DNA of 63,073 nucleotides, filler included, from Bilabrum cf. latius (Eukaryota), in NCBI GenBank assembly GCA_965178125.1. It is 2 parts of 2 records of this genome, joined end to end, with 100 filler letters (N's around TTAATTAATTAA, not from the genome) between each part and the next. Parts side by side here need not be neighbours in the genome. Positions count along the whole stretch, not along the records: positions 1 to 31,613 come from CBCXTV010000015.1; 1 more part is not named here. The stretch is one strand, 5' to 3'. The notes under the pieces were generated by a model. That model made no database searches, was not told where the DNA came from, and worked only from the letters and a program-made list of their open reading frames with translations. The position numbers and the translations under genes were made by a program. The first letter of the stretch is position 1. Each line of letters opens with the position of its first letter. Positions 8,029 to 38,493 of this stretch are shown piece by piece.

Positions 8029-8224
8029 AGCCGACATTGTTCCAAAGCCTGCGCTGCAAAGGCCTCGCCGACGTCCTAATCCAACGCGACAGCTTCTTAT
8101 AAAACCGGTTGTACACCACAATTGGAAACAAAACATCCCTAGCAGAGGCGTCAGGCAGGGGACCACTCGACCGCGGCGAACGGCTCGCGTCTCGAGGGCC
8201 ACCAATAGCGTCGTCTGGTGGATG
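8029..8224 (-). pseudogene. Captured 5' fragment of element A Rep gene (also 10439-10633, 13731-13926, 16135-16330)
   Basis: Near-identical to 20367-20560. Encodes SGPLPDASARDV.FPIVVYNRFYKKLSRWIRTSARP.QRRLWNNVG. Confidence 0.85.
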
Positions 8225-8287
8225 GTTCTACGGCGCCTTCCGACGAGTCGGAATTCCTCCTCGTTTAGGTAGTATACGAGAGCCGGG

Positions 8288-9035
8288 TGACGCGGAGAGC
8301 AGGTGGAAAAAAAAACGCACTGGTGAATGGTAGGTCCCCACGACCTGTTGGCGTCCCCCCTTTCGAGCACACCTTTCGGGGCGAAAACCCGCCCCGCGAA
8401 GCGTCCCGACGAACTGTTGGCGACCCCCTCTTTCGAGCACACCTTTCGGGACTAAAATCCAGCCCCGAAAACAAGCCCGCCCAAGGGCGCTTTGCGTCAC
8501 TCTACTGTGGGGTCCTCGAGGGGCCCAAAAAACGAACCGGGGACGGCCCCGAAAAGGGTCGCGACCGGGGCCCGCCCTGTGGTCCCTGCAATAGGAAGAG
8601 CTGGGAATGGCGGCCCGCGGGCTTGTTGCGACTGGAGCGTCAAAGTCGACAAGGTCCCAGAAGACGCGGAGAGCAGGTGGAAAAAAAAACGCACTGGTGA
8701 ATGGTAGGTCCCCACGACCTGTTGGCGTCCCCCCTTTCGAGCACACCTTTCGGGGCCAAAACTCGCCCCGCGAAGCGTCCCCACGAACTGTTGGCGACTC
8801 CGTCTTTCGAACACACCTTTCGGGACTAAAATCCAGCCCCGAAAACAAGCCCGCCCCAGGGCGCTTTGCGTCACTCTACTGTGGGGTCCTCGAGGGGCCC
8901 AAAAAACGAACCGGGGACGGGCCCCGAAAAGCGTCGCAACCGGGCCCCGCCCTGTGATCCCTGCGATAGGAAGAGCCGGGAATGGCGGCCCGCGGGCCTG
9001 CTGCGACTGGAGCGTCAAAGTCGACAAGGTCCCAG
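8288..9035. repeat. Two tandem ~375 bp subrepeats containing several CTG-core end-like motifs
   Basis: GACGCGGAGAGCAGGTGGAAAAAAAAACGCACTGG...GTCGACAAGGTCCCAGA repeats at ~8290 and ~8663, again at ~10700-11450, and in unit 2. Confidence 0.85.
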
Positions 9036-12000: not shown

Positions 12001-15000
12001 GCACATGCCCCTGGTGTAGAAGGCCCGACGCCGCCGCCGCGACCGAAATGCATGCCGCCGCCACCGAAATCCATGCCGCCGCAGCCATCGAAATCAATGC
12101 CGCCGCTGCCGAGCTCCGTCTCGCCAACCCACCGTCACTTTCAATCAAATCTGCTGGAATTTCCAGCGCTGTGCGGGAACGCGAGATTGAGAACGCGCAC
12201 CTCCGAGGAATTCCTGTTCGAGACATTCCCCTGGTTTTGACCCAGCACTGGTGATTGAGGCCACAGCGGCGGTCGAGCGGGTGGCTGCAGCAACGGCGGC
12301 CGAGTCCGCAACGGCGGCGGTTACGGCAGGGACCCCGCAAACTCTCTACTGGAAACCGAACGCCAGGTTTGCTGGGTGGAGACCCCAGAACCCTTGGCCA
12401 TGAAACCTTGCCATAGAAGGAAGGAGAGGCTCTTCGGTTTTATGACTCGGGGATACGAAGAGCTGGGAATAGCGGGCGAGCAGAAGTCCGGCCAGCCGGC
12501 CACCGAAATCCACGCCGCCGCCGCCATCGAAATCCATGCCGCCGCCACCGAAATCCATGCCGCCGCCGCCACCGAAATCCATGCCGCCGTCACCACCGAA
12601 ATCCATGCTCGCGCCACACATGCCGCTGGTGTAGCAGGCATGCGCGTTGGACACATGCCTCCGGCGCCGCACGGCTTGATCTGGGAGCGGTTGCTCGAGG
12701 CCACCATGCCGGCTCCAGTGGAGGAGGACTCGCGCGGCTGCTCTCCCCCTAGGAGTCCCGGCCTCCTGATCGAGGCTGAGCTCCGAGGATAGGAAGAGCT
12801 GGGAATAGCGGGCGGGCAGGAGTCCGGCCAGCCGGCCACATGAACGTCTTGTTATGCGACAACGAAAGAGGTGGGCTTCCTGCAGCACGACTTCCGCTGC
12901 AAGGGGATCAGCCCCACGTTCCGCGCCGCCTTCGCCGCAGCGTTGGGCGCCGAAACCGCTGGCGCCACATCTACGCGACGACGCTGGCCATGGAACCTCG
13001 GCAAAGTGAAAGGAACGGCGCTTTCGGCACTTGGAATAACCGAGCCAGGCGCCGTTCACAGTTACGGGTCCGGTGCATGAAACGAGGCTGGAGCTCTTGG
13101 CCACCTTGGGCCAAGGATTGGCTATGAGGGTTGGGTGCAAGGGTCCTCGTGCCGCTCTGGCTTTCGTTGCCGCGAAGTGGTCGAAAAACGGCCGTTTTGG
13201 GGCGCGGACTGGCGCCTCGCGACCTGTGGGACCTATGGCTCCGGTACGAGAAACGGACGGGAAGCGAACGACAACACCGGGGCCGGGTGGCGGGGCACGA
13301 ACTGCAAACGGACGGGAAACGAGCGGCAGGACCAGCAAGGCGGAGACGGGCAGGAGGCGGACTGGCCATGGAACATCTGCAGGGAAAGAAGGAACGGCGC
13401 TTTCGGCACTTGGACTCCCCTGCCCACCGGAAGGAATTGGTCTTCTTCGCCACCCACCGATGCTGGCCTCCCAAGCATTCCCGCAGCTGGCCCATATAAT
13501 ACAACGTCATCGCCGAGCTCGGGAAGACCAAGCAGAAAGTGTTCTGCGAAATGTTCAAGTTCAGCCGGCGGCCGCCGAGGGCAGTGAGTGAGCCACGCCG
13601 GCCGGCATACTCGCGGCCATTCTACTTCTGTACGACTTTCCGCGGCTCGTCTAGAGGCGGACGGACCACTTGAGCTCTCAAGGCGGACTCCGAAAGCTCT
13701 TTTGAACAGCGGTCCAGGAATACCTCGCACAGCCGACATTGTTCCAAAGCCTGCGCTGCAAAGGCCTCGCCGACGTCCTAATCCAACGCGACAGCTTCTT
13801 ATAAAACCGGTTGTACACCACAATTGGAAACAAAACATCCCTAGCAGAGGCGTCAGGCAGGGGACCACTCGACCGCGGCGAACGGCTCGCGTCTCGAGGG
13901 CCACCAATAGCGTCGTCTGGTGGATGGTTCTACGGCGCCTTCCGACGAGTCGGAATTCCTCCTCGTTTAGGTAGTATACGAGAGCCGGGTGACGCGGAGA
14001 GCAGGTGGAAAAAAAAACGCACTGGTGAATGGTAGGTCCCCACGACCTGTTGGCGTCCCCCCTTTCGAGCACACCTTTCGGGGCCAAAACCCGCCCCGCG
14101 AAGCGTCCCGACGAACTGTTGGCGACCCCCTCTTCGAGCACACCTTTCGGACTAAAATCCAGCCCCGAAAACAAGCCCGCCCAAGGGCGCTTTGCGTCAC
14201 TCTACTGTGGGGTCCTCGAGGGGCCCAAAAAACGAACCGGGGACGGCCCCGAAAAGGGTCGCGACCGGGCCCGCCCTGTGGTCCCTGCAATAGGAAGAGC
14301 TGGGAATGGCGGCCCGCGGGCTTGTTGCGACTGGAGCGTCAAAGTCGACAAGGTCCCAGAAGACGCGGAGAGCAGGTGGAAAAAAAACGCACTGGTGAAT
14401 GGTAGGTCCCCACGACCTGTTGGCGTCCCCCCTTTCGAGCACACCTTTCGGGGCCAAAACTCGCCCCGCGAAGCGTCCCCACGAACTGTTGGCGACTCCG
14501 TCTTTCGAACACACCTTTCGGGACTAAAATCCAGCCCCGAAAACAAGCCCGCCCCAGGGCGCTTTGCGTCACTCTACTGTGGGTCCTCGAGGGGCCCAAA
14601 AAAACGAACCGGGGACGGGCCCGAAAAAGCGTCGCAACCGGGCCCCGCCCTGTGATCCCTGCGATAGGAAGAGCCGGGAATGGCGGCCCGCGGGCCTGCT
14701 GCGACTGGAGCGTCAAAGTCGACAAGGTCCCAGAAAGGATGCGGTGCCACCTGGCCCAACACGACCTGGTTGTACTAGGCGTGCGCGGCGCTACGCGGAG
14801 TTTGAGGTGCCGATCAGTTTCCTCTGCAACCGCTACGCCACCTGGACCCCTTCCTCACAGAGAGACGCCCGACCCTTGCCACGCAGAGAGATGCCGACGG
14901 CGCGCTGCCAGCGGAGGCACAGTGGGCGAAGCGGACCCGGACATCCTCGAGACCCTGGAGAAATCAAGGCCGGCGCCATCGAAATCCATGCCGCCGCCGC

Positions 15001-16899
15001 CATCGAAATCCATTATTCTGCCGGAAAGTCAGTGGTATCCATTGGGCAGTGCCGGATGTTGTCTTTGGCGCGGTCTGTCGCGTACGAGGCGGCGTGCGCG
15101 GCGCTACGCGGAGCTGAAGATGCGATCAGCTTCCTCTGCAACCGCCACGCCAAGTGGACCCCTGCCACCAAAGAGACACCCGACCCCTGCCACACAGAGA
15201 GATGCCGACGGCGCGCTGCCAACGGAAGCATATGCCCCTGGTGTAGAAGGCCCGACGCCGCCGCCGCCACCGAAATGCATGCCGCCGCCACCGAAATCCA
15301 CGCCGCCGCAGCCATCGAAATCCATGCCGCCGCCACCGAAATCCATGCCGCCGCCGCCACCGAAATCCATGCCGCCGCCAGCGAAATGCATGCCGCCGCC
15401 ACCGAAATCCATGCCGCCGCAGGCACAGACATCCGGCCGCGATCTCCCTGCGAGGCCCCGGCCTCCTGATCGAGGCTGAGCGCGGACGATAGGAAGAGCT
15501 GGGAATGGCACGCGAACGTCGAGGTGTGACGCGGGCACTTTCCACGGAGCAAGGCGCATTCGGTGTCCATGTGCCGGAGCGAAACCATTTCGGGGATACG
15601 TGCGGATGAGGCTGGCCGATGCAGAATGAATGGATATCATCGAGCGCACGGCCTCGCTTGCCGCACCCGTTCTTCTACGCCGGATCCTATGAACAACTAT
15701 GTCACACGATCGTCGGCGCAAGTAATCGCACCACATCTCGGTAGCCAACGCAGCTGTACAAAGCCCTCACAGAGAGACTAGACGAGGCTGGCCGATGCAA
15801 AATGAATGATATCATCGAGCCCCCGGCCTCGTTTGCCGCACCCGTTATTCTACGCCGCGGCGTAGATTCGGCGAGAGCGAGCTGCAACCGCCGAGAGCGG
15901 TACTACAGCTCCGTCTCGCCAACCCACCGTCACTTTCAATCAAATCCGCTGGAATTTCCAGCGCTGTGCGGGAACGCGAGATTGAGAACTGAGTGAGCCA
16001 CGCCGGCCGGCATACTCGCGGCCATTCTACTTCTGTACGACTTTCCGCGGCTCGTCTAGAGGCGGACGGACCGCTTGAGCTCTCAAGGCGGACTCCGAAA
16101 GCTCTTCGAACAGCGGTCCAGGAATACCTCGCACAGCCGACATTGTTCCAAAGCCTGCGCTGCGAAGGCCTCGCCGACGTCCTAATCCAACGCGACAGCT
16201 TCTTATAAAACCGGTTTGTACACCACAATTGGAAACGAAACATCCCTAGCAAAGGCGTCAGGCAGGGGACCACTCGACAGCGGCGAACGGCTCGCGTCTC
16301 GAAGGCCACCAATAGCGTCGTCTGGTGGATCGCTCTACGGCGCCTTCCGACGAGTCGGAATTCCTCCTCGTTTAGGTAGTATACGAGAGCCGAGTGACGC
16401 GGAGAGGAGGTGGAAAAAAAAAACGCACTGGTGAATGGTAGGCCCCCCAAGACCTATGGCGTCCCCCCTTTCGAGCACACCTTTCCGGGCCAAAACCCGC
16501 CCCGCGAAGCGTCCCGACGAAACTGTTGGCGACCCCCTCTTTCGAGCACACCTTTCGGGACTAAAATCCAGCCCCGAAAACAAGCCCGCCCAAGGGCGCT
16601 TTACGTCACTCTACTGTGGGGTCCTCGAGGGGCCCAAAAAACGAACCGGGGACGGCCCCGAAAAGGGGGTCGCGACCGGGGTCCGCCCTGTGGTCCCTGC
16701 AATAGGAAGAGCTGGGAATGGCGGCCCGCGGGCTTGCTGCGACTGGAGCGTCAAAGTCGACAAGGTCCCAGAAGACGCGGAGAGCAGGTGGAAAAAAAAA
16801 ACGCACTGGTGAATGGTAGGTCCCCACGACCTGTTGGCGTCCCCCCTTTCGAGCACACCTTTCGGAGCCAAAACTCGCCCCGCGAAGCGTCCCCACGAA

Positions 16900-16950
16900 C
16901 TGTAGGGTTTCACCTTTTTCCGGGAAAGTTGCGGCCATATTCCGTCCGCC
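16900..16950. repeat. Imperfect terminal inverted repeat of element A (pairs with ~30405-30456 and ~5445-5495)
   Basis: About 45 bp imperfect inverted match, beginning exactly where the 5.7 kb repeat is interrupted. Confidence 0.75.
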
Positions 16951-17599
16951 TAAATACAAAGCCCGAATTGTCCCCCAAAATCGAGTGCAAATCAAAGCCA
17001 TCGCGGACGCCAACCACAACATCAGTAGCCCAACAACCAATCATGGCGGACATCGCGCTCAATAGGGACGTCCGCCATAGGCTCTTGTCAAGTCACTTCA
17101 TGTTCTTGGTAGCGTCAGCGACAGGTGCTTTGTGCACTCGACCACATAGGGGATTTTCGGGTCGATTTTGGCGGCAAGTCTGTAAGCACAAATGTCTCGA
17201 CGAACGAGGGACAGCGTACCGTCACACACCAAACGAGTCGAGTGTGACCCAGAAATCTCACAACAGAATGTCAGAATCACGACGCATAGCGAGATCATGT
17301 CTCATGGGTTCCGAACAGCACCGTAACACGAACACGGAACCGAAAGCTCATAGGTACAAGTTTCCGGACCACGTTTAGCCCACTGATAGAACCAAACAAC
17401 GTTTCAAAAAAAAACAGGCCACACAAGAATGATCCACATGCTCAACGAACCAATGGCGACCGAGGTTCACCTTCCGAGCAATTCGGACTTGCACTGTGAC
17501 ACATAATCGGCATATCTTCCGAACATCGAGACGCCCATGTAATAGTTTTCCAGACAAGATCATAAAAGAAAGGTATGTGGTGAGTCATTCTAACATACT

Positions 17600-18334
17600 A
17601 TGACCAAATCTGATCCATCCCGCCCACCTAGGCCCAAAATTGCCCCAAAAAACCGGAATTTGTCATGTTTCAAACGGCTGCAGCTTCTTCTCGATCTCCA
17701 ACTCCGACGGATGCGGCGGAGGCCTAGGGTCGTCTGGTCGAACGCAAGCCCTCCTCCGTTTCAACGCAGCGAGCACGCCGCGATTCTTTGTGTCCAGGCG
17801 CGGCCGACGCTCGTGACGAGATTCACGCGGGCAATATGTTTGGGCATTTGTGGGTCTCGCACAGTGGCGATGGGATCCCCCTGGAACGACGCATGGGGAG
17901 CCTTCTGCTCGCAAATCGACACGTTCGGCGTCGAGCGCAACTACGTCCGCACAGCATGCGGCTGCAGGACAAGCCCGGCTACGATACAAGCTACGGGGAA
18001 CGGAGACCACCGGGACACAGTGGGGAACGTCATCGCTTGTCGTGACCCCCCTTCTTGGTGTGCTTGGCGGACGCGCGGCCTCCCGACGCCCTGGAGCACC
18101 CGATATACCGAACGTACGTGCTCCAAAGGACGTCGGAGCTTTAGCAACGACGGGCTGAAACGCCGGAGGCTCTCCAAGGAGCTCTCTTTTCCCACACGAG
18201 GTGACGATGGGTTGGTGCATGACGCTGATGATGGGAATGTGTTCTTGTGTGTACGTCTCAGAGGGAAAAACCGAACATCCCAAGATCAACGCCCGAAGAC
18301 GCAACCTCTTCAGAGGTATCTACCGAACTTATGA
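17600..18334 (+). CDS. Hypothetical protein (uncertain)
   Basis: 244 aa ORF inside element A, antisense to the other genes. No motif or homolog seen in B. Confidence 0.2.
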   Translation: MTKSDPSRPPRPKIAPKNRNLSCFKRLQLLLDLQLRRMRRRPRVVWSNASPPPFQRSEHAAILCVQARPTLVTRFTRAICLGICGSRTVAMGSPWNDAWGAFCSQIDTFGVERNYVRTACGCRTSPATIQATGNGDHRDTVGNVIACRDPPSWCAWRTRGLPTPWSTRYTERTCSKGRRSFSNDGLKRRRLSKELSFPTRGDDGLVHDADDGNVFLCVRLRGKNRTSQDQRPKTQPLQRYLPNL

Positions 18335-19047
18335 TCTCGTAAGGGAAACTATCAAATGGGCGCCAAAGTGCTCTACCAATCGGACACAAATCTTCCAAAC
18401 ACTAGGATGCATTGTGCGTTCGACAAAATGTGCCAATAAAAACCTGTCGCTATCGAGATGCCTCGCATGAGGCATTGGACATCCAACAATGACCTGCCCT
18501 TCACAACGCACCGTTCGAAGCGACGGACATCACTTCACAGACACACGCAGGACGAAATAGACAGCGTTGAAATCATGATCACTCAGAATGTCCCAAAGGC
18601 GCACTATATCGATGAAACGCACCATGCTGGGCAGGAAAACGCTCTGAGGGTCAGCATATTCACTTGATTTCCCTTCCTCTCTTTTTCCTTTTTTCTCTCG
18701 AACATCGGCACACGCGAACGCAGGGCATACCGCCCAACGAATGAAAGGCAACAAACCACCTCCGAAAAAAAAAGACTGGCTCTACCCACTGACAGACAGC
18801 ATTTCCTACCAGCGCACAAACAGAAAAAGCGAGCACAAACACAGGACCCAAGATTTCGGGAACACAACGCCCGAAATACTCCGCGGACTGCGGAGCTGTA
18901 GGAAGAAAAACCGCGCGAAACAAGAATGAAGGAAAAAGAACGCCGAAGTGTGACGCATATATCCTAATCCAACAATACGTACCAGATGGTAAAGCGTGCA
19001 CGATGAAAATAAAAACGCAAATCACCTGAACAATTCTCGCTGCATAC

Positions 19048-20641
19048 TTATGACTGGGACAGCCACAGGGGTTCCCGGACGTGGATCAACACCGAATTGA
19101 CTTCGAGCCACTGTCTCTCCACATCGCCGATCTCTGCGATGTGCACGTCCCACGAATTCGCAGTAGCCACCATGCGTACGGCATGTAGCCACTTGGAATA
19201 CGCGTAAATATTGGTGCTCGACTGCCCCAATCGTATGCTCTCTGCGGGTGATTGCAGCACCCGTCTGTTCGATAGCACAAATTGAGGAGTCGCCTCATCG
19301 AGCACGATTAAATCGTGAAATCCGGGGCGGAATCCACGTAATTCCGGCTCCACCGCGTGACCGCAGTCCACCCAAAAATGGTTTCGAGTGGGGGACAGAG
19401 ATTTGGCAAACTCTGATTTGCCGACTTGAGATGGACCGAGCAAAACTAAGAAGGTATATCGGTGCTGCACACGAGCGAATTGTTCGCACCACTGTACTAC
19501 CTCTGGAATCACACGAAAAGGTTGCAAGCTCGAAGACAAAATCCGGCGAACCCGTTCCTGCTCGTCGGTGAGCCATGATTCCGCGCGCAACTGGGCACCA
19601 CACACAGCGTCCAAATTCGCAACAATGTTCGTCACATTCTTGGCACACGCGATGACTAATGTACGCGCCACATCAAGCGTGACCTTCGACGCCTGTACAA
19701 GCGTCAGGATCTGATCCGGCTGTACACTGTAATCCACAAACGGTTGGACAGTCCCACTCGAAACTATCTGTCCGATTTTCGGAGCTTGCACGTAGAACAT
19801 CATACGCTGAAACGCACGCACCCTACTTGAAACCGCCGCCCAGCGATTGCACGCCGAAAGCACGGGGTCAGAGCCCAAGAAACCTCGCTCGGCTTCGTCG
19901 CTCCGGGCGTCCGGCCGGAGAATCATCGCAACATGAAAATGCACGCGCGCCACTGGAGGATGCGCCACGTAAGACTGGCCGCACATCTCCGCAGACCAGA
20001 CCCAATCCGCAGCGGACACATCGGAGGCGTATTGCTTCATACGCGCAACAAATCGATCGCGCAGTGACCCAAACCAAGATGAACCACGCAGCACCGCAAC
20101 CGCGAGCTCTAATCTCGGAGGCAGCACTTCATGCGGAAACGTCTGCAAGGGAACCACACCCCACGGGCCGTTGTATGTCAGGAGACACGCGTGGCGCAGT
20201 CCTCCTCTCTTACCCTTCGGATTTCGCAACACCCCACGACGCGCACCAGACGCAAGCGAACGCGCTAAACCCACTTCCTCCTCTGTGAGATCGTGGCTGC
20301 TTAACAAGAAGGCTGTGACCAACGATCGCTGAGCAGATGACAGGGCCTCCCCTGAGGCACGCCGTAAGCCGACATTGTTCCAAAGCCTGCGCTGCGAAGG
20401 CCTCGCCGACGTCCTAATCCAACGCGACAGCTTCTTATAAAACGGTTGTACACCACAATTGGAAACGAAACATCCCTAGCAGAGGCGTCAGGCAGGGACC
20501 ACTCGACCGCGGCGAACGGCTCGCGTCTCGAGGGCCACCAATAGCGTCGTCTGGTGGATGCACCGACGACCGCGCATCCGGCTGCCACGGTTGCTTCCGA
20601 CGCAATCGCACCCGATGCTGCGCGGCTCGCAGCGGTAGCAT
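19048..20641 (-). CDS. rep: Rolling-circle replication initiator: HUH endonuclease + SF3 helicase, gemini/genomovirus-like
   Basis: Motif I LLTYN, motif II VHFHV, motif III FYVQAPK, Walker A GPSQVGKS, Walker B IVLDE, motif C VATAN, C-terminal WLEVNSVLIHVREPLW. The N-terminus extends to ATG 20641 after correcting two 1-bp deletions; this is supported by the captured fragments and by homology to B Rep. Confidence 0.9.
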
Positions 20642-21252
20642 GCTGGTGAGTGTTCCGTCCACTTTCAAAACTCCACTCGCCTCACATTCTCAGCCGAACC
20701 AAAGCTACATAATCACCTCGGAAACACGGGTCCTCCTCTCATGCATACGCCCTGTCAATTCCCAAAGCTGCCAATCCTCAGAGCGGGAACTCGTGCACAT
20801 TTCTGACAAGATGCTTCAATGTACTTGCAACGCGCCCGGCATCCTTACGGGCCACACGCCTTGCCAAAGCATTGCTGACCTTCCTGACGGCACTCTTCTA
20901 CAACCCGTTCGCACACTGCTACGCACTCAATGTTCATCGACAATCAGCCCATCCCAAACACCATCACGAATGCTGAATTCTGAATGTCATGAATGAAAAC
21001 CCTGACATGCCATTCCTTCCAATTTCTCTCGCACCTTCTGGGAAATGCATAGTCATACACACACACCACACTCTTTCTCTCAACTTCCACACACCCCCGA
21101 CACAGTCAGAATACCAACCACGGGCACCCCTCAATGCTTGGAAGCGAATATATCGGGAATCGAGTTCTTGGGGGTCGCAATCTTCGCCGCAAGATGTGCT
21201 TCTCGGGCGACCATGTGCGTTCCTGGGTATCCATTCTTGTGCGTATCCTCTC

Positions 21253-21358
21253 TTCCAGCTTGGAGGGCCCCGGGGAGAGAGGAGAGTGTTTTCACTAGGT
21301 AATATTAAAACCTCTCCGACAGTCTCCCCACTCTTCCACTCTCCCCGGAAAGCTGGAA
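21253..21358 (-). other. Putative rolling-circle origin: hairpin with TAATATTAC at the apex
   Basis: Minus strand reads AGGTTTTAATATTACCT (nonamer 21299-21307). Outer arms are TTCCAGCTT..CCGGGGAGAGAGGAGAGTG and CACTCTTCCACTCTCCCCGGAAAGCTGGAA. Lies upstream of Rep. Confidence 0.7.
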
Positions 21359-22209
21359 TCGCATAACAATATGGGGGAAAGCACAAAAATTGGGCCAATT
21401 TGTGGGGAGAGAAATCGGGGGTGAATCCTGCATATAAAGCAGGGTGTTTTATCTTGGGATGTGGGTGGTTCAGAAGCCTAGGTTTGGGGGGGGGGGGGTT
21501 GAACAGGGGGTCTGAGAAGCAAACGGGATGTTTCATATGCGATTGAGGGGGGTGAAGGGGGTTCTGATGTGGCGGGATATGGATTTGGGTAAATCAATGG
21601 CGTGGGAGAGGTGCTTCGGGTTGCTGTGGGGGCTCCGGGATTTGGGGGTGAGGGTCCAGGGTGGCAAGGGGGCGTAGGGCTTGCGGGTTTTTTTTTTGGG
21701 GGGGGGGGGGTAGGGAGGGGGCAGGGGGACGACAGGTTCAGAAGGGTTCCAGACTCATGTGTGGGATGCGGGGGATTTCAAGGTTTTCGCAGTCCGTCGC
21801 AGAAGGCGGCGGTTCTGAATGAACCTATTCCATGGTCTTCGAGTCTCTCTTTTTCTTTCGCACTCTTCTTGGGGTTTGCATGTGTCTGCGGTCTGCGATG
21901 TGTGCAACTAACTTCTGCTGAGCTATTCGCCCAACGATTGCCTGTTCGCGGCTGTCCATTGTGGCAAGCCCTTTCGGCTCTCGGGCTCTTGGCCCTGCCT
22001 TTCGAACAGACTGCGCGATCGCACTGCATGCAAAAAGAGACATGGGCAAGATTGAATTTGGTCGTCGCTCATGGCTCCGATGTGGACGATGTCGTGGCGC
22101 CGCAACCTCAGATTCACTTTTGCACGACTGCACACGATGTCTCGAATACTGGACTTAAGTGGTTTGCTTCTCTCCTTTAGGGCTTCTGGTCACGGCGATC
22201 TGGATTATT

Positions 22210-22662
22210 TCACGCGCGAAAAAGCTTCCCTATTGTGCTTATCTGGTTTTTTCGAGAGCCTGAGGTCGTCGTAGACGACGATGAAGCGCCGCCCGGCTCT
22301 GTTTTGGTGTCGGTCTCGCGCATGCGCAAGACTTGCAGGAGGTCCTCATCTGACAGCCGCCGCGCCTGCTTCTTCAAGCGCGTCCGCCTCTTCTCTGCAT
22401 TCCGGAGACCCTTGTTCAAACGCTTGCGTTCCATCTGCATGCGCATCTGTACAGCTTTCATCTCGGTAATTCGTTCGCTCAGGGACGGCGTTCCTCCGGT
22501 CGCCGTTGCAGCAGGATGACCTACCTCGGGCTGCTGGGTCCTCGATTGGTCCTCGGTTGCAGGCGCCGTCGCACGAGTGGTGGACCCGGGAGATGTCGAC
22601 CCCGTGGTAGGCGGCGTACAGTCGAGGTCGTCGCGGACAACGTCGCGCTCGCCGTCGGACAT
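22210..22662 (-). CDS. Small basic coiled-coil protein overlapping transposase 3' end
   Basis: ERKRLNKGLRNAEKRRTRLKKQARRLSDEDLLQVLRMRE is homologous to B ERKRVTKDLRNHEKRRRRLKANARRLSNDDLAEVMLMRE, with the same overlap geometry. Confidence 0.8.
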   Translation of the reverse strand: MSDGERDVVRDDLDCTPPTTGSTSPGSTTRATAPATEDQSRTQQPEVGHPAATATGGTPSLSERITEMKAVQMRMQMERKRLNKGLRNAEKRRTRLKKQARRLSDEDLLQVLRMRETDTKTEPGGASSSSTTTSGSRKNQISTIGKLFRA

Positions 22663-24543
22663 CTGTGCGGCTCTGCTGGAACGGAAAGCGAGGCCGCCGA
22701 TGTGGATGCAGGGCAGACGGGGTCCTCCGCAATCCTATTCGAACCTCGTGACTGCGCTGCGGCTCTTTCAGACGTTTCCCAAACGAGAGGCACATGGAAC
22801 CACCAACCGAGCGGAAGGGGATGTCGATTTGTGGTGCAGATCTGTACCTCCTGAAGAGTGGGCAACGTACATGGGACAACGAGGCGTTCGTGAAATCTCA
22901 AGCGTTTACGGACGCGGGCACCGATTTCTTCCTGTCGGCCGCCGAAGCCGCACGAACGGAAGGCGTGTTTCCAATCCGAGCTGTTCAGGATGTGCCGCGC
23001 GCACTGCCCCCAAAGATTGATGATGTCGCGGAACTGTACTTCTGCAGACGGTGGTGATTCGCGCAACACTTCCAAGGCGTCTCGGGCTGCCGCCTTCACG
23101 CGCTGGAAAACATGCGTATCTAGCGGCTGCAAGATGCCCGTCATCTTCCGCGGGATGAAGACGATGCCAATGTTTGCTCGACCGCAAGCCTGTGCAACTT
23201 GGGGGGTTAGATGTGTCGGACAGCCGTCGAGGGACAAGAGAAAAGTGCATGAGGCCATAAATGGTTCGAGGTGTCGTCGCAGTTCCGCGATAATTCCTGT
23301 GATGTCACGACTAGTACACCAAGCGCTTGCACGACGCCGTACGTACACCAGGGTCTCCGTCTCGGACTGCTGGAAGAATGTCGCATCCGTAATACGACAT
23401 GTATGTCGGTTGGCGAAAATCCATAATGGAAGACGGCGTTGCACCTCAGGGGCATCTGCGAGGAGAAGACCAAGCATGATGTTGAAGCGCGTTGTTGTCG
23501 TAGGGATACGGGTGCACCATAGTCCAGCCGTGTGGTATCGTCCTTCCCGTCCCCGCGCGCTATGTAGCCAATTCGCGGAGGCAGCCACATGGGGGAAGGC
23601 CGTCTCGTCGAAGTTCAGATGCACGATGGACTTGTCCCTGGGGGCACGTGCCTCCAGGCAATTCACCCACTTCCACATGGCGAGCGCCTTGCGTGTGAGC
23701 GGTGTGGGGTTTCCGCGGGACGGACTGGCGGCGGGAATTTGGCGGCCGGTTGTCGGCCTCCCGTTTTAGTATTACGTGTTTATGGCGGGGCAATTTTGGA
23801 GGCCGGATTTTGGCGCCGATTTCGGTCCCGGACAGGGCGGGCCCGTGGCGGATTTTGGCCCGACTGGGGCTGGATTTTGGGCCCTCTGACGCCTTCGCCT
23901 GCGCGGTCTCCAGAGGCAATGCGCACCCCGGTCGGAGAAGTCCGCGACGCACTCTCATGCGCCTGCACCAGCGCCGGCACCACTGTCGATTTCTGGGAGA
24001 AATGGCCGCGGTGTGTGCGTGGGCGATTGGCGACCGGCTCGATTCGCCTTCGCAGTGGATGACGTCCCGTATATGGATCAAGCGTTTCGTGGTGGGCGCT
24101 TGGCCGACCACACGGTTTTGCTGTTGCACCCAGTACAGCAACTTCACATCCTGCAGGTGCTTCTGTGCATGTGTACGGCGTCTCATCCACCAAATGTCTG
24201 CAGTTGTGTCATGACGAAACGTCATCTCTTCGCATGCCTCGAATGTGATTCAGAGCTGTCTCCACAACTTCAGGTGATGCGGCTAAGTTTGGTCGTTTGT
24301 GCTCGATGAAATGACGTACGGCTTCCTCAGACCAACCATGGAGATGGAAAAGCACCGCAGCAGTATCTCGAAGTCCGGCGGCATAGCGCGGCTACGTCCC
24401 GAAGTCGCCGATTCGGATGAGGACATGCCCATATTTTCAAGTTTCCGGCTTTCTCGACGGAGTCGTGAAATCTCCTCCGTCAGCTCTCGCAGTCGTGCTT
24501 TGTCGGTTGCCATGGCCCCGCGTTTCAGATCAGGTGAGGCCAC
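22521..24543 (-). CDS. pogo-like DD35D transposase, 2 exons (intron 23688-23892), with several indels
   Basis: NFDET, LSLDGCPTH and ILQPLDTH, with 35 residues between the last two Asp. Exon 1 pieces (LRDTAAVL, WVQQQNRVVGQAPTT, QWCRRWCRR) match B. Frameshifts are errors or decay. Start is approximate. Confidence 0.85.
23688..23892 (-). other. GC-AG intron in transposase
   Basis: AAG|GCGTC...CGCAAG|GCG joins ETAQAK to ALAMWKW. Same position and phase as the GT-AG intron in B. Confidence 0.75.
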
Positions 24544-24739
24544 GAACGTAGGGGCGGCGCAATGTCACAAGCTTACGCGAAGGATCCCCGAAATATGGCT
24601 GCAAAAACACTGAATGTCAAGTCATGGAAGTCTGGCATCTGAGTGTTACGTGGATTCTTTGGTCATTTTTCTGGAGCGGTGCACTCATGTGCAGCCTCAT
24701 GACCAACTTCTTTACAGACAACTCGATTGGCAACCCACT

Positions 24740-24905
24740 CCGGGCCCGGGCCCAGGGACGCGCCCGGGCCCAAGCCCGAGCCTTGGGCCCGGACCTCCGC
24801 CCCAGCCAGGCCCGGGCCGGAGCTCGGGCTGGGGCTTGGGTTGAAGCCCAGGCTGGGATTGGACCCCGATCCAGGCCCGAATTTGGGCCTGGGTCGGGCT
24901 GGGTT
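24740..24905. repeat. GC-rich low-complexity (GGGCCC/GGGCT)n tract upstream of transposase A
   Basis: Visible degenerate hexamer repeats. Confidence 0.7.
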
Positions 24906-26142
24906 TCCGGGATCAAGTACAAATACGAAAGCACGAACCACGAGCATATCCCCGTTGTTCTCTCGCTGGGAAGCATGCAAGCAAGCCTTGCGAATCGCTG
25001 TGCTCTCTTCGAAAACAACACATGTTGACACAGGATCATGTAGCGATATTGGCCAAAGAAACAAACGATCATCGTGTTTTCGCTCGGTTGCCCGCAATGT
25101 CGGTGGGCAGCTCTCATGCCGTGCGGCCCCAAAGGAAATCGGATTCTCAGTTCGAACTCCTCGACCGATCTTGTGTCACACATTGGCTTTAGCGATGTTC
25201 GCGCTGTAGACTGTGGTTTGACGTGGCTTTCATTCGAAATTGGACTTCGATTTAAGGCTTCGCGTTCCAAAGACGAACATGTCACCATGAATGACTTACA
25301 CAACCAGCATGGATCGCCCACGGATTGTCTCCAGCCGGCGCAAGGCCACGCCCACGGGAGCGTCTTCTACGGGACGGTGACTTCGCGATCACCACACCGC
25401 TCGGTTAAGCCGGAGGGAGGAGTGACGCGGATACCGCTGCGCTGGGTGTTATATGAGGTTCTGTTCCAATTCTGCTGTTCGCCTGTTCTAGGATTTTGGG
25501 TCTTCTTTACGTTATGTGTTCGCGTACGGCGCCGTCGGCGCTCGCTCGCCAAAAGTCAATGGCGGGAGGGCGGCTTCATCCAGGCTTCTCAGACGCTCCC
25601 AAAGCGCGGGCGCCCGCGGAATAATGCTACAGAGCATCTCCCATGGCAACCGCTCACTGCCGTCCTGTGCCTGAGGTCGCCACCACGGCACATCCACCTT
25701 CATGATCTCTCCGCTCGCACGCCCGCCCAAAACTGCGCGACACTTTCGATTTCGCCACATGGACAGCTAGTGTCAACCACTCATTCCAGAGACACTGCGC
25801 ATGAAGACGGAATCATGTTTCTCCAAAGAAGCACGAGGTCCAGATGGAGCATGCCATGCACCATGTATCGCCGAAGCACCTCCGATTTTACGGCAACACG
25901 CGAGCATCCAACAGATCGCGTAACATCGACGGACGTGTCAACATCACGACAGTGGTTCCTCGCACGCCGAGTGGCAGTATCAAGTCGATCCGGGGGCAAC
26001 AAATCATGTTTACATCGGACATCGTCACAATATGTGCCCAACTTGTCACTTCTCCGACGAAAAAATCTCACCGAGTTTCATCCACCTCACATTTTCAGCA
26101 TGTCCATGTGGCTTTTTTTTTGTCCATCTATATTGGACGCGC

Positions 26143-27795
26143 TCAAACCACCTGTCGGCACCACGCGGTCTGGAAGCAGCGCTTTCTGTACATGTCGACG
26201 CGTGCGCGTCGCTGTCGTTGCCAGCGCTGGGAGTTCGCGCCGTCCTGCGCCGGCTCCGGCTCTGTGACGAGCCAAGTCATGACATTCGTGAGCTGCCCAT
26301 TGCTCTCGCTCAGGGCTTCCGTGACGCTCATCCCCTCCGGGTCCTCTTGCAGGACGCGAAGCGCGTTCGTTGGGGCTAAGTCGCGGAGAAACTGGCATAG
26401 ACAGGCTCACGGCCTTCTGCCTGAGCATGAGCTACCCCCTGAAAAAAGCCCCATTGGCCGTCCGCGCGTCCGAAAGGACCGCACCATGCGCCCGATGGGT
26501 ATTCGATCCATCCACGCGACACCAACATGTCGCGAAGTTGAGCGTCCTGGGTCCACAGGTCGAGGGACCGCGGCGGACGTTGTGTGATCCACACATAGGG
26601 CATGCTACCGCTGGCTAACGGTACGCGCGCATACACACGAGGCTCACCAGACCATTCCAATGAGATGAGTTCCCGCACGCGATACCCTCCGCCATGAGAA
26701 CACGTTCTGCCGGGCAGTTCACGTGTCCCTGACTGCGACCACCAACGCGCCCACGCATTGGATCGCACCGCGCCGGCTAAATTCATCGACACGTGCTTAT
26801 CGGAAAATCCGCCTATGGGCGGGCACACCAAGCACGCACCGCACTGTTGTTGTGGCAACTCACCGTTCATTTGGTTCATCAACCAAACGTCGATGTGCCC
26901 CGGTTTCGTGCGACCCATACGATCGAGGAGGTATCGAGCGCCAGCCGCCGTGAAGCCCAGCATAGTGCTGCCATAACTGACGCGGTTGCCGCGCACGTTC
27001 CGTTTTTGCTCCGGCTGCGCGGCGTTCCATGACAACCACACGACATTGCCACGCTGAACGCGAGCCGCTTCGTTGCAGATCGCTACGAGGTCGGTTAATT
27101 CTGGGCTCACTTCGGAAAATCCTTCTGGCACGGCTCGCCCTTCCGCCCGCTCGAGCCCGGAGATCATGGGAGTCGCCTGTGATTCTCGTCGCGATCTCTT
27201 AGACCGCTGGCCGGCTGTGACCTCCGCCCTGTGCGCCGCCGTCCCGCCTTGGCTCCCCGGGCGACCGGCTCCGGTGGAGCCTGCGGAGACAGCGGACGCA
27301 GGGACTCCGGCGGATGAGGCAGCAGCCCCTGACCCCGGCCCGCCCGTACTCTGCTCTCCGATCAACGGCATCCATGTTTCCGGGGCGAGGTCGTCCCAAG
27401 GGTATGCCCGCCAGTCGTGCTCGCAGTATAAGAAGAGGGTGTCCGGCGCGTGGCGCTCGTCAAGCATCCACGGGAATGCACAATCCTCCACCAATGAAGT
27501 ATCCGATCACATGGGAAGGAAATGAAACACCCACATGCTTCAGAAAAAACCACCCGCAATGCATGGACTCTGGATGCGTGAACGGACTTATGGTTTGCGA
27601 TTCACGGGCCAAGCCGCCCGAAACCAATACCAGATGCAGTGCGGGATCGGCACCTCCGGCGTCATCTTCGCAGTGCGTCCAATACATGCTAAGATCTGCG
27701 CCGGTCTCAATCTGTACGGCAAGTACGGAAAATAGCTGGCCGTCTCCGCGGTTTCGTGCGTCAGCATGAGCACCTGAAATCAGACATATGAACAT
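26143..27795 (-). CDS. Putative GT25-like protein, second copy
   Basis: Near-identical to 1052-2700; core ORF 26376-27494. Confidence 0.45.
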
Positions 27796-28807
27796 GACAT
27801 TGGATGTACCTGGAGTTCATGGCATTTCAGTGAAAAATCGGTTCGAAAACATGGGAAACGTATGACATTTTTCTCGGGCCACAAGCACCGACGGCGACCA
27901 GCTCATCTGATGCTATGTGATTCCAAAATGGAACAGAGCGCCAAAAATATGGAACCAACCTAGCCGTGTATGTCATGACACGTGAGCAACTGTGACGCGA
28001 AAAATCCCCATCAGCGCCTGCACCGGGCGGCCCAGAACCATCGTTACATGCTTCTCCGGGCTGTAAGCCGCAGATTTCAACGCGAGGTCAAGTCTCACTC
28101 GCTGCAAGAGCTCTGCTGTGCCTGCGGCGACGGTGGCGGCGGCACTGGCTGTAGCGGGTGCAGAGCGCGGCGCTGCGGCCGTGGCCGCAGTGCTCGTCGG
28201 AGGCCCCACGGCGGCGGCGGCGGCTGCTGCATGGAGCGCCGTGACAGGGCTCGCGGCGCAAGACGCACCAGAGCTTCGGCCCCAAACATGCCACGAGCTG
28301 TGTCTCATCATGCGGGTGCGTGTGTCCTCACCCCGCGTCGCAATCCAATCTTCAGTGACGCACAGGCACTCTCATTCCAACCCATGCTGGATCACAATTT
28401 CCCAGACACATGCCATCAATCGCAAGTCCACATGACACAAAACACCTGCAAAACAAACAAGCTCGATCACTCAGCTGAGCAGTGAAACACCCCATGGCCA
28501 TGTGATTTCATTCAATGCGAAAAGAGAAATACCACAATTCGATCGGTTTTCGGACAGATGCGGGGAACCTCACGATTTTTCATGAACGCTCGAAGCCCCA
28601 CAGATTCAGTTTCCCAGACGCGCCCGATTGGATACGTTTTTTCCGCGACCACCGTATCGCCTCCATTTCTCCGGGGCCTCTATACATGCAAAAGACTTTT
28701 ACACACTGTACATAGACCGATGCCAGAGAATCGTCGATGCAGGGCGAACAGCTCCTGTCATCGACATTCGGTGTTGTGCGAACGGCTCCAATCACCGGCA
28801 GGATCTC

Positions 28808-29339
28808 CTATGGCCATTGCTCTCCAATCGAGCGCGCACGGCGTCTGAGCTCCAAGCCCTGTTCTTGGCTGCAGCCGATGAAAAAGCAACGTCTAAAAAA
28901 CTCGGTCCACTCGGATGAAGCAAGCGGTCGCGAGTCGCGCGCGTCCGCAGGGACGAGCGCGGCATTCAGCACGCTCCCAGTTGAGCAATGCAACCAGGCA
29001 CGACGGTCGAGCTCCTTCAAATAATGCTGCTTTCGAACGAGAGGATTACCGGAACGACTTGGCGCGGATGCGGCTATGGCAGTGCGTCCATTCTGCACGT
29101 CTGTTATCCACGCATTGTACTGATTCCGTATGTCCGAAATGTGCCGGCGAATCCATTCCTGTGACCGCGGGCTGTCAAGCCTGCGCGCCGGGGACTGCGG
29201 CACGAGCCTCGCCGGGTTCGCTGGCCGGCGTGATAGGACTCGGGACACAAAGATCACAATTCATCCTGTGGCTGTCACCAGATGTCTGCGTAAACCACAC
29301 CGCATGCTCCGACACTGCATCTCGGATGATGTGCTCCAT
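28808..29339 (-). CDS. ORF-X, second copy in A (1-bp frameshift)
   Basis: Near-identical to 3854-4384. Confidence 0.7.
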
Positions 29340-30456
29340 GCGTGGGAATGAAAAACATGTCGCACATGCTCCCCGAAAGAAAAATCAAGCATGAGAGAAA
29401 ACATTGCTCCCCGCATCGTCCTGAAAACATCAACCTCAGTAAAGGTCATGGGAAACACCTGAGGGGTTTGTTCTCTTTTGATCGATCGCACAACGGCACA
29501 CGCACAATCGTCGGGCAAAGCATTGGCACCACGTGGCGACGACCCATACCCAAAAAAAGTCACTGCGACTCCGCACTGGCAACTCGCGCTCTCTCCGGGC
29601 AAGCCCGAAAAGCCGGGGACAATTTGCCGGGCAATGCTGATGATGAAATCCCATATAGTGAGAAGATACACGAACTCCGACAGAAACACGCTGGCCCCAC
29701 ACACAAAGATCCCCAGTGTCTATACATGCGCTAACTTTTTCCTGTACAAGATCGAGTCACACAACCAAGCGGGGATGCTAATACAACTTGACACTCGACG
29801 GTACCGCATCAATGAGGACGCTCCTTCTCAACACCGGCGCGCTGAAGATTCATGACAAACGATGACAGCCGACAAAGGCGCTTGCGTCCCAGGAACCAAC
29901 AGGGGCTCTATTCAATACGCGGAGAAAGGACTCAGAAAACGATTCTGAATGATGACGACAGGGACTAAACAGATCCATGAACAACTATGTCACACGATCG
30001 TCGGCGCAAGTAATCGCACCGCCTAGCCGGTAGCCAACGCAGCTGTACAAAGCCCTCACAGAGAGACTAGACAGTCCACATGACAACCGCCGAATCACAC
30101 GGCACACGATCGCCAACGAAACTATACACATAACATCCGCGTGGCACCGCAACTGAGAAGGCGAGAAAAAAAGAAAAAAAGGAAGCACATGAACAGTCGT
30201 TGCCGCCAAAGAGGTGCCGCTACACATGTGGTCTCGTGGGCGACTGACCGCGGGCAACGCGCAATCCGGCAGTGCCCAGTGGACATAGACCGCCACGTAA
30301 CACAGGTCTGACCACCAATCCGGGGTGCACAGACACCCTAGAGGGACGTGTATCCTGTGCCCAGACCGGATTCGATTTTCCCGGTCGGTTTCTGGGGCAC
30401 ATTCTGAGGCCGGATTCTGTCCAGGACTTCCGCGGAAAAAAGCCGATACCCTACTG

Positions 30457-31613
30457 CAGTAGGGTATCGGCTTTTTTCCGCGGAAGTCCTGGACAGAATC
30501 CGGCCTCAGAATGTGCCCCAGAAACCGACCGGAAAATCGAATCCGGTCTGGGCACAGGATACACGTCCCTCTAGGGTGTCTGTGCACCCCGGATTGGTGG
30601 TCAGACCTGTTACGTGGCGGTCTATGTCCACTGGGCACTGCCGGATTGCGCGTTGCCCGCGGTCAGTCGCCCACGAGACCACATGTGTAGCGGCACCTCT
30701 TTGGCGGCAACGACTGTTCATGTGCTTCCTTTTTTCTCGTCTTCTCAGTTGCGGTGCCACGCGGATGTTATGTGTATAGTGTCGTTGGCGATCGTGTGCC
30801 GTGTGATTCGGCGGTTGTCATGTGGACTGTCTAGTCTCTCTGTGAGGGCTTTGTACAGCTGCGTTGGCTACCGGCTAGGCGGTGCGATTACTTGCGCCGA
30901 CGATCGTGTGACATAGTTGTTCATGGATCTGTTTAGTCCCTGTCGTCATCATTCAGAATCGTTTTCTGAGTCCTTTCTCCGCGTATTGAATAGAGCCCCT
31001 GTTGGTTCCTGGGACGCAAGCGCCTTTGTCGGCTGTCATCGTTTGTCATGAATCTTCAGCGCGCCGGTGTTGAGAAGGAGCGTCCTCATTGATGCGGTAC
31101 CGTCGAGTGTCAAGTTGTATTAGCATCCCCGCTTGGTTGTGTGACTCGATCTTGTACAGGAAAAAGTTAGCGCATGTATAGACACTGGGGATCTTTGTGT
31201 GTGTGGGGCCAGCGTGTTTCTGTCGGAGTTCGTGTATCTTCTCACTATATGGGATTTCATCATCAGCATTGCCCGGCAAATTGTCCCCGGCTTTTCGGGC
31301 TTGCCCGGAGAGAGCGCGAGTTGCCAGTGCGGAGTCGCAGTGACTTTTTTTTGGGTATGGGTCGTCGCCATGTGGTGCCAATGCTTTGCCCGACGATTGT
31401 GCGTGTGCCGTTGTGCGATCGATCAAAAGAGAACAAAACCCCTCAGGTGTTTCCCATGACCTTTACTGAGGTTGATGTTTTCAGGACGATGCGGGGAGCA
31501 ATGTTTTCTCTCATGCTTGATTTTTCTTTCGGGGAGCATGTGCGACATGTTTTTCATTCCCACGCATGGAGCACATCATCCGAGATGCAGTGTCGGAGCA
31601 TGCGGTGTGGTTT
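30457..31613 (+). mobile_element. Inverted partial copy of element A terminus (fold-back)
   Basis: Reverse complement of ~29295-30456, mirrored at GATACCCTACTG|CAGTAGGGTATC. Confidence 0.85.
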
Positions 31614-31713
31614 NNNNNNNNNNNNNNNNNNNNNNNNNNNNNNNNNNNNNNNNNNNNTTAATTAATTAANNNNNNNNNNNNNNNNNNNNNNNNNNNNNNN
31701 NNNNNNNNNNNNN
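31614..31713. other. Artificial contig-joining linker (N44-TTAATTAATTAA-N44)
   Basis: Symmetric N runs surround a 12-mer with stops in all six frames; total length is 100 nt. Confidence 0.95.
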
Positions 31714-33827: not shown

Positions 33828-33917
33828 AAAAAAGGGGGCCGAAGCGCCGAAGCGCTGGAAAGCGCTTTAAATATTTAAAAGCCTTTCCCAGCGCTTCTGC
33901 TTCGCCCCCCCTTTTTT
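33828..33917. other. Putative origin hairpin (B copy 1)
   Basis: About 45 bp imperfect arms centred on TTTAAAT|ATTTAAA. Confidence 0.6.
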
Positions 33918-38394: not shown

Positions 38395-38493
38395 GCGGCC
38401 GGAAAACGGCCGCAAAAAATAGAGGAAAAAAAGGGGACCCAACAGTCGGGTCCCCCATTTTTGCCCCCGGTTTTGGTGCCGTTTTCCGGCCGC
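38395..38493. repeat. TIR-TIR junction between adjacent B copies
   Basis: GCGGCCGGAAAACGGC...GGGGACCC-AA-CAG-TC-GGGTCCCC...GCCGTTTTCCGGCCGC, exactly symmetric about 38444. Confidence 0.72.

Follow-up and report, generated by a model that had tools for sequence, protein, structure and literature searches.

Can a hairpin that carries a geminivirus-type nonanucleotide, placed inside a transposon-like element of a eukaryote, serve as the replication origin of that element? The question is raised by positions 21253-21358 of a 63,073-nt stretch of DNA from Bilabrum cf. latius (assembly GCA_965178125.1), hereafter the window, which was searched over its whole length. The hairpin, designated H1, lies in an element called A, between a DDE_1 transposase gene and a gene for a replication initiator protein (Rep). 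A related element, B, is found in the other part of the window. The motif and the hairpin are real, non-random, and part of a conserved element architecture, and H1 represents, for the A family, a cis element with a fixed place between the genes for transposase and Rep. For the further step, i.e., that H1 is an origin or nick hairpin recognized by Rep in a transposon-replicon hybrid, the chances are about even; origin function is plausible by analogy with known replicons. The central features of element A are listed first.

21299-21307, minus strand (the Rep strand): nonamer TAATATTAC, the sole match in the window, 0.02 expected
21253-21358, minus strand: hairpin H1 of element A, a 106-nt imperfect inverted repeat; DNA fold z -4.18, unique in the window
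21272-21410, plus strand at 21272 and 21404, minus strand at 21323 and 21340: iteron-like cluster of the short repeat GGGGAGA, with four of its eight window occurrences in 140 bp
19048-20641, minus strand: Rep A gene, HUH nuclease and superfamily 3 (SF3) helicase; placed by the long frame, the ATG frame, the family alignment, the AlphaFold (AF2) model, and fold matches

The nonamer TAATATTAC was matched at least once in 2 of 100 dinucleotide shuffles, and its relaxed form ANTATTAC gave three matches in the window against 0.61 expected. The geminivirus cut site is TAATATT/AC, as given in PMC1669733. Folding of the minus strand at 21245-21365 produced one long imperfect hairpin, with 21358 and 21253 as the outermost pairs. 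The initial annotation had put a geminivirus nonanucleotide on the minus strand at the apex of a long hairpin with these limits, and both the search and the fold bear this out. The hairpin has -27.3 kcal/mol against a shuffle mean of -15.6 kcal/mol, and the plus strand of the region folds equally well (z -4.67). Pairing is strong in the two basal stems (9 and 10 bp) and weak over the apical 50 nt. The sequence of the apex is AGGT[TTTAATATT]ACCT, i.e., a 9-nt loop closed directly by a 4-bp AGGT/ACCT stem and not by a GC-rich stem of 9-11 bp. The nonamer occupies the final seven loop bases and the first two bases (AC) of this apical stem. Because TAATATTA is its own reverse complement, the strand of the nonamer is decided by the final C alone. 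As the hairpin occurs at one place only in the window, a small repeated inverted-repeat element was ruled out as its identity. It was not scored as a single hairpin in a plus-strand fold scan with 110-nt windows.

That the locus is an unremarkable, functionless inverted repeat which happens to hold the motif is very improbable, with 0.02 nonamers expected per window, a hairpin z of -4.2 reached by none of 200 shuffles, and a syntenic counterpart in element B at an equal distance from the element end, even if the search was post hoc and the palindromic TAATATTA could have scored on either strand. A 17-nt version of the A apex was also met 12 times in AT-rich viral contigs, none with a Rep relative. 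Ten of these 12 contigs have a GC of 0.30-0.42, and the matches were taken as chance.

The place of the hairpin becomes clear when the two elements are compared. The window is two sequence records joined artificially, and A and B therefore need not be neighbours in the genome. Both records consist of units abutting end to end, which were resolved by window self-comparison and junction alignments. The joint, the limits and ends of the elements, and the genes and hairpin of B are as follows.

31614-31713, no strand: run of N with TTAATTAATTAA in the middle, read as the artificial joint of two sequence records
16900-30456, genes on the minus strand: element A, 13,557 bp, with homologous inverted ends
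16900-16990, plus strand: inverted terminal repeat of A, Rep side, starting CTGTAGGGT; aligns with three other A/B ends
30367-30456, minus strand: inverted terminal repeat of A, transposase side, starting CAGTAGGGT; aligns with other A/B ends
22524-23765, minus strand: DDE_1 (pogo/Tc5-type) transposase of A; PF03184, E 3.9e-10, 40 bits, cut-off 22
38443-52133, genes on the plus strand: element B, ~13.69 kb, with homologous inverted ends
38443-38533, plus strand: inverted terminal repeat of B, transposase side; abuts the end of the previous unit, giving a palindrome at 38395-38493
52043-52133, minus strand: inverted terminal repeat of B, Rep side; aligns with other A/B ends
45296-46492, plus strand: DDE_1 transposase of B; PF03184, E 8.3e-9, 35.7 bits, cut-off 22
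47541-47629, plus strand: hairpin H1 of element B, 43-nt arms and 9-nt loop AAATATTTA; DNA fold -35.6 kcal/mol, z -6.33
47475-47566, plus strand at 47475, 47551, and 47559, minus strand at 47498: cluster of the short repeat CCGAAGCG, 4 of 19 window occurrences
48522-50189, plus strand: Rep B gene, 35% identical to Rep A; open reading frame (ORF) 48288-50189, tblastn E 2.7e-79

By tblastx, A (minus) and B (plus) are collinear, i.e., an ORF without assignment is followed by the DDE_1 transposase, a spacer of ~1.6 kb, and Rep. The transposases of A and B are 38% identical and the Reps 35% identical. A long hairpin lies between transposase and Rep in both elements. Its apex is 9154 nt from the transposase-side end in A and 9141 nt in B, with 4.4 and 4.5 kb to the other end. 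The initial annotation had described the motif as sitting in the middle of an element bounded by terminal inverted repeats; it is inside the inverted ends, but not in the middle. In A the nonamer is 658 nt upstream of the Rep ATG (20641-20639), in agreement with the earlier figure of ~650 bp, and 824 nt from the long-frame start at 20475.

The B hairpin is present in identical copies at 33829-33917 and 61259-61347, i.e., in all three B copies. Its loop is closed by a 5-bp GCTTT/AAAGC stem that caps a helix of ~37 bp, again in place of a closing stem of 9-11 bp, and its loop region is palindromic (TTTAAATATTTAAA). The 22-mer of the B apex had no match in viral contigs. Both 9-nt loops hold AATATT, which has nine sites in the window (two loci in record 1 and three per B unit). 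The two hairpins have stems of unlike sequence, and a different short repeat is clustered at each (GGGGAGA vs CCGAAGCG). In total, CCGAAGCG occurs 19 times in the window, 11 on the plus and 8 on the minus strand, and the cluster was scored at one B hairpin locus (47475-47566). From their sequence and position, both clusters are putative iteron-like repeats that Rep may bind.

Base composition changes near the hairpin. On the Rep-sense strand, A and B are A+C-rich upstream of the hairpin and G+T-rich from the hairpin onward. In A, whose apex is at 9154, the largest A+C drop between 400-nt flanks anywhere in the unit was at position 9150; in B, with the apex at 9141, it was at 9300-9350. Across most of both units the nonamer-bearing strand is G+T-rich, and this is strongest immediately beyond the hairpin. 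No peak at the hairpin was seen in cumulative skew maxima for the A and B units as wholes; the local A+C switch alone peaks there. The G+T richness of the nonamer strand would fit prolonged single-strandedness of a displaced strand, and transcription could give the same pattern.

These data also bear on a conserved cis element with another job, i.e., a terminator or insulator between the genes, a promoter element of Rep, or a transposase site, with TAATATTAC as a coincidence of an AT-rich loop. The hairpin does lie in a 1.6-kb spacer between two same-strand genes in both families, and the composition switch fits a transcription-unit boundary as well. B has retained the hairpin and the AT-rich loop and not the nonamer, and its palindromic loop region (TTTAAATATTTAAA) is as in a plain cruciform. 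Such a role is nevertheless unlikely. The exact nonamer, with 0.02 expected per window, falls in the loop, and AATATT is found in both loops though it is rare (9 sites in 63 kb). Repeat clusters that are specific to a family and placed at the stem, as here, are typical of sites bound by initiators, and the adjacent gene is by fold a nicking initiator, whose relatives recognize exactly such loops.

The identity of this initiator was examined by sequence and by structure. The Rep A long frame at 19048-20475 has 475 codons on the minus strand. No Pfam family and no PDB sequence matched Rep A at E<=1, and neither Rep A nor the 28 aligned family members matched the Gemini_AL1 profile (PF00799). None of the 28 members matched a Pfam Rep family at E<=0.1, where just weak AAA-type matches were seen, and the profile of the 28-member alignment found no PDB chain at E<=1. 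The family is large: an exhaustive HMMER search gave 1329 cluster representatives at E<=0.001, of which 262 remained at E<=1e-30; of 10 clusters looked up, none bears a name. Residues G103, E163, H179, H181, Y228, K233, G235, K264, R339, L343, G347, D393, E394, T421, N440, W456, and N460 are invariant in the alignment, and K353 is nearly invariant (>=90%). The conserved motifs are LLTYNGxWG, RVHxHxxL, FYxxxPKIG, GPSxxGKT, and FDE. Walker A, Walker B, and motif C of the helicase are conserved, and the SF3 fold is present. Read from the sequence, the motifs are laid out as in an HUH nuclease with one tyrosine that precedes a P-loop helicase.

The AlphaFold model of Rep A has a pLDDT (predicted local distance difference test) of 87.8. 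In a Foldseek search of PDB with the full-length model, the best match over the whole length was Rep68 of adeno-associated virus 2 (AAV2; E 3.6e-8), and papillomavirus E1, Vientovirus Rep, and the Rep ATPase of porcine circovirus 2 (PCV2) were also matched. Among predicted viral structures, Cressdnaviricota Reps (best E 3.1e-13) and parvovirus NS1 were matched, the named Cressdnaviricota rows being Genomoviridae, Cruciviridae, and a begomovirus. Modelled on its own, the nuclease domain had a pLDDT of 90.2. It gave no Foldseek match at E<=0.001, and VIA-align placed HUH nuclease domains in 9 of the 10 top rows. The best row was Vientovirus Rep (Z 8.4, root-mean-square deviation 3.0, 106-113 residues aligned), with lower Z for circovirus Rep (6.7), nanovirus M-Rep (6.5), B19 NS1 (5.9), AAV5 Rep (5.8), PCV2 Rep' (5.8), the Rep of tomato yellow leaf curl virus (TYLCV; 5.7), and a Helitron nuclease (5.3). 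The Z of TYLCV Rep is tied with many rows and ranks below the redondovirus, circovirus, and nanovirus domains (Z 8.4-6.5). Language-model neighbours of Rep A included Cressdnaviricota Rep clusters with 19-80% of members carrying Gemini_AL1, which is a lead only. By modelled fold and by motifs, Rep A is a Rep like those of viruses whose single-stranded DNA is circular and encodes a Rep (CRESS viruses). Of the earlier label "gemini-like Rep", the Rep with HUH nuclease and SF3 helicase stands, but the gemini part does not stand by sequence, given the lack of a Pfam Rep match; a geminivirus-type Rep is not demonstrable, and the likeness holds at the level of the modelled fold only.

CRESS origins combine a common loop with lineage-specific repeats. 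In element A the loop holds the CRESS-type nonamer TAATATTAC (NANTATTAC), and the adjacent Rep has HUH motifs I-III and an SF3 helicase. Because a conserved AT-rich loop, lineage-specific stem repeats, and an adjacent HUH-SF3 initiator make up the layout of a CRESS-type origin, H1 is read as the cognate origin or nick site of Rep A. Hairpins are commonly recognized by HUH enzymes, according to PMC10288648.

In the window copy, the 5' part of Rep A is spread over three frames. The frame of the ATG at 20641 is open to 20495, the next piece is in the frame of 20301-20681, and the long frame holds the remainder, the frame changing near 20494 and 20442. Other public runs were compared as assembled contigs, and contigs of three to four of them show single-letter length differences exactly at both breaks. 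The breaks may thus be errors or private to the window copy. In B, the first Rep copy (35022-36405) is split into two frames near 35641-35675, and the second (48798-50180) is in one frame.

The same comparison of runs was informative on the hairpin. A 790-nt contig from a run with a different organism label (X4) spans 20650-21440 and is ~99.5% identical. All four letter differences and all gaps lie outside 21253-21358, i.e., hairpin and nonamer are unchanged. Since the whole contig is ~99.5% identical, this speaks for presence and not for selective constraint. In run X8 there is a coverage void at 20593-22362, except for a short repeated 26-33-nt piece at 21357-21389; run X6 is thin at 21301-21654. 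In X6 and X8 this piece, which adjoins the hairpin base, is present in two copies 17 nt apart, whose surroundings, flanked by runs of G and of A, are otherwise unrelated. None of the runs listed for the stretch is an RNA run.

More distant Reps were sought in metagenomes by a degenerate DNA pattern for LLTYNGPWG, which gave nine loci, i.e., five full Rep relatives and one fragment among them. The same pattern in genome contigs hit one bacterial contig, taken as chance, and a Rep-family alignment search of viral contigs gave 20 pattern matches and no confirmed relative. The strongest hairpins upstream of Rep in the five metagenomic relatives have no nonamer. One contig (L004) has genes for a DDE relative and a Rep relative (24% and 31% identical) on one strand, the DDE gene being upstream. 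With A and B, the pairing of DDE and Rep genes is therefore present in three lineages. In L004, GAATATTAC stands at 1786 in a hairpin with a 6-bp CACACA/TGTGTG stem, 3.5 kb upstream of the DDE gene and 10.5 kb upstream of Rep. This hairpin was judged uninformative. A dispersed repeat of 30-35 nt, in about 10 copies, was also seen at 1400-10210 of L004. Another metagenomic contig of 3.5 kb (L003) starts with a 78-nt hairpin (1-78), whose basal stem is G-rich and 14 bp long and whose apex is of the TTTTAAAG type; the hairpin stands ~1.4 kb upstream of the Rep relative on this contig. As to conservation among copies, which the initial annotation had proposed as a check, the hairpin is present unchanged in the X4 contig and B has a hairpin at the same place; the canonical nonamer is not kept in B and was not found near Rep in the five metagenomic relatives.

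The ends and arrays of the elements were considered next to the hairpin. Terminal inverted repeats, as in DDE_1 transposons, bound both A and B. The four ends at 16900 (+), 30456 (-), 38443 (+), and 52133 (-) align mutually, with 29 of 95 columns invariant, and open with C[AT]GTNGGGT, followed by a T-run and TCCGGCC. The opening motif has 18 matches in the window, i.e., seven A/B unit ends, seven in an internal repeat of small units, and four elsewhere in B. The earlier placement of the terminal repeats (~4337-5495 vs 30457-31613) has to be replaced; these are an arm of a direct repeat and the terminal fold-back of record 1, and the true ends are 16900 and 30456. Positions 1-5495 repeat 25090-30456 as a 5.4-kb direct repeat and are the start of another A unit. 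Record 1 closes in a zero-spacer palindrome, 29292-30456 / 30457-31613, with 1.16-kb arms and the centre CTGCAG. Two element ends may truly meet head to head here, or the assembly may have folded back on itself. No A or B end in the window borders host DNA; each abuts another unit.

Between the two A units, four smaller units (3.3, 2.4, 3.3, and 2.4 kb) fill 5496-16900 and abut at 8788, 11197, 14486, and 16900. Each has related inverted ends and a 75-90% identical fragment of the Rep A 5' part (e.g., 10395-10641), and they may be non-autonomous derivatives. Tandem repeats of 21 and 24 nt (CCGAAATCCATGCCGCCGCC...) are found at 5955-6940, 9541-9774, and 11659-12133 and in further copies; their minus-strand reading would give a glycine-rich protein repeat of the GGGMDFGG type.

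Record 2 holds ~2.3 near-identical B units head to tail. A second long hairpin of B (38395-38493, 52083-52181), with 49-nt arms and 1 nt between them, is the junction of abutting ends, which overlap by three bases, CAG. A 64-bp stretch is present in B copies 2 and 3 (48175-48238, 61893-61956) and missing from copy 1 at 34462; the tandem copies are thus not identical. Each B unit also contains a block of 8- and 12-nt GGGC-rich simple repeats (41336-43950, 55118-57600), with GC up to 0.80 and a strong G-over-C skew. In 110-nt windows, the plus-strand hairpins at or below -30 kcal/mol were the B hairpin, the end-to-end junctions, and these GC-rich simple-repeat blocks.

The initial annotation had reasoned that copying of the whole element would require a circular or tandem form, and head-to-tail forms are indeed present in the window. 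Head-to-tail units with abutting ends amount to a template form that permits rolling-circle copying. The array units are unequal in size, and for this reason insertion at element ends or recombination is favoured over simple rolling-circle concatemers.

These features of the arrays and of Rep A also admit a relic origin, i.e., an ancestor captured a CRESS-type replicon, and the element is now moved by the DDE transposase only, its origin and perhaps its Rep decaying or repurposed. In such a case one would read the three-frame 5' part of Rep A in the window copy, the split Rep in one of three B copies, and the drift of the B loop from the canonical nonamer as decay. Derivatives without H1 have multiplied, and unequal abutting units resemble transposase-driven insertion. 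We consider a relic quite unlikely, since the single-letter differences of three to four other runs at both Rep A breaks mean that the breaks may be error or private, and the catalytic residues of Rep are kept across 28 diverse members of a family with 1329 clusters at E<=0.001. Furthermore, the position, size, and loop type of the hairpin are kept at 35-38% protein identity, where the flanking non-coding sequence has diverged beyond recognition.

Several observations weigh against reading H1 as a working Rep origin. The hairpins of A and B are far longer and more irregular than typical CRESS origin stem-loops, and a stem of just 4 bp closes the loop of A. The B loop AAATATTTA is without AC after the cut site and matches the canonical nonamer at 6 of 9 positions. 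Beyond AATATT, the spacers of A and B share nothing above chance, i.e., the best alignment had 22.3 bits and was matched by 53 of 100 shuffles. None of TAATATTNN, NAATATTAN, and NANTATTAC was found near Rep in the five metagenomic loci, whose relatives are 26-34% identical; the one match lies in L004, at a distance of 10.5 kb. A diverged (~85%) A-like contig of X4 joins 20698, 21119-21146, and 22321 and has no alignable hairpin region. The 5' part of Rep A is out of frame in the window, and the four small units at 5496-16900 multiplied without H1. The arrays mix units of unequal size, which is not expected of simple rolling-circle concatemers. A capsid or other recognizable gene was not found, with 18 further ORFs lacking a Pfam match; a very divergent capsid could still be encoded in A or B.

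If H1 is an origin of Rep, the following course can be proposed. Rep would bind the family-specific short repeats in and beside the stem, and the AT-rich loop would be extruded. The Rep tyrosine would then cut the Rep-sense strand in the loop, which in A would be TAATATT/AC by analogy with geminiviruses. A host polymerase would copy the element from a circular or head-to-tail template, and the DDE_1 transposase, acting with the inverted ends, would carry out excision and insertion. In this course we infer the binding, the nicking, the cut position, the rolling-circle copying, and the circular form from the layout.

A wider and more tentative proposal is that A and B belong to an undescribed class of eukaryotic mobile element. 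In such a class, the pogo-type DDE transposase with the inverted ends would carry the element into and out of chromosomes, and the CRESS-like Rep with the internal origin hairpin would amplify the excised circle by rolling-circle replication. The end-to-end arrays would be traces of an episomal phase or of insertion at element ends, and the Rep family would be a large, unrecognized, capsid-less branch of CRESS Reps in protists. We consider this possible, though doubtful. In the literature, no described eukaryotic element with a DDE transposase and an SF3-helicase Rep was found; the supplements of PMC6668415 and PMC10288648 might list the Rep family.

A working Rep origin at H1 would have a big meaning for mobile DNA, because the element would link cut-and-paste transposition with virus- or plasmid-type rolling-circle replication, which are usually held separate. 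Among eukaryotes it would correspond to the integrative pCRESS plasmids, which are thought to be ancestors of CRESS viruses. A defined Rep, a 106-nt site, and a natural sister pair differing in loop and stem repeats would form a system in which to ask how the specificity of a Rep for its nonamer and iterons evolves. A large Rep family that is missed by present domain libraries would gain a function as well. If the hairpin is not an origin, the finding is an unusual two-gene DNA transposon with a conserved internal palindrome.

Among known systems, the origins of CRESS-DNA viruses, i.e., geminiviruses, circoviruses, nanoviruses, and redondoviruses, are alike in that a Rep with a one-tyrosine (Y1) HUH nuclease and SF3 helicase adjoins a stem-loop and lineage-specific short repeats stand at the stem. 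In circoviruses and nanoviruses, the nonamer is on the rep strand, as in element A. The A loop with TAATATTAC corresponds to the geminivirus cut site TAATATT/AC (PMC1669733). The hairpin of the element, however, is ~100 nt long and imperfect, against a 9-11-bp stem in the viruses, and B has AAATATTTA instead of the nonamer. A Cressdnaviricota virus genome was rejected as the identity of the element. CRESS viruses have 2-6 kb, whereas the unit has 13.6 kb, inverted ends, a DDE transposase, no recognized capsid gene, and a Rep without a Pfam Rep match, and DDE_1 is the only recognized domain among its other ORFs.

The integrative pCRESS plasmids of bacteria (Kazlauskas et al. 2019; PMC6668415) are likewise capsid-less CRESS-Rep replicons that are also integrated in host genomes; unlike those described there, the present element is apparently eukaryotic, with inverted ends and a DDE_1 transposase of the pogo type. 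With pogo/Tc5-type (DDE_1) transposons of the Tc1/mariner group, it shares the DDE_1 domain and short inverted ends starting CAGT or CTGT. Such a start is typical of the pogo/Tc5-type group. These transposons usually have 1-3 kb and one gene, whereas the element has 13.6 kb, a Rep gene, and an origin-like hairpin.

Helitrons and Replitrons are also eukaryotic mobile DNA with an HUH Rep, and hairpins are implicated in recognition (PMC10288648). Neither carries a DDE transposase or inverted ends, and the element has both. A Helitron was rejected. The RepHel protein of Helitrons has two catalytic tyrosines and an SF1B (Pif1-like) helicase, whereas the element Rep has one conserved tyrosine and a helicase that matches SF3 proteins (AAV Rep, E1, PCV2 Rep ATPase), the Helitron nuclease reaching Z 5.3. 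A Replitron was rejected as well, because Replitron transposases are described without a helicase in PMC10288648 and the element Rep has an SF3 helicase.

The rolling-hairpin NS1/Rep proteins of parvoviruses are close in that AAV2 Rep68 is the best full-length PDB match and the element has palindromic junctions. In contrast to parvoviruses, its candidate site is internal and not terminal, and its units run head to tail and do not alternate head to head; the sole junction of the head-to-head kind stands at the end of a record, where the assembly may have folded back. Composites of the Teratorn type (PMC10175614) also combine a cut-and-paste transposase and a virus-derived replication module in one large element, there piggyBac and a herpesvirus in 180 kb, here DDE_1 and a CRESS-like Rep in 13.6 kb. 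On this comparison, the element would function as a CRESS or pCRESS replicon fused with a transposon of the pogo type.

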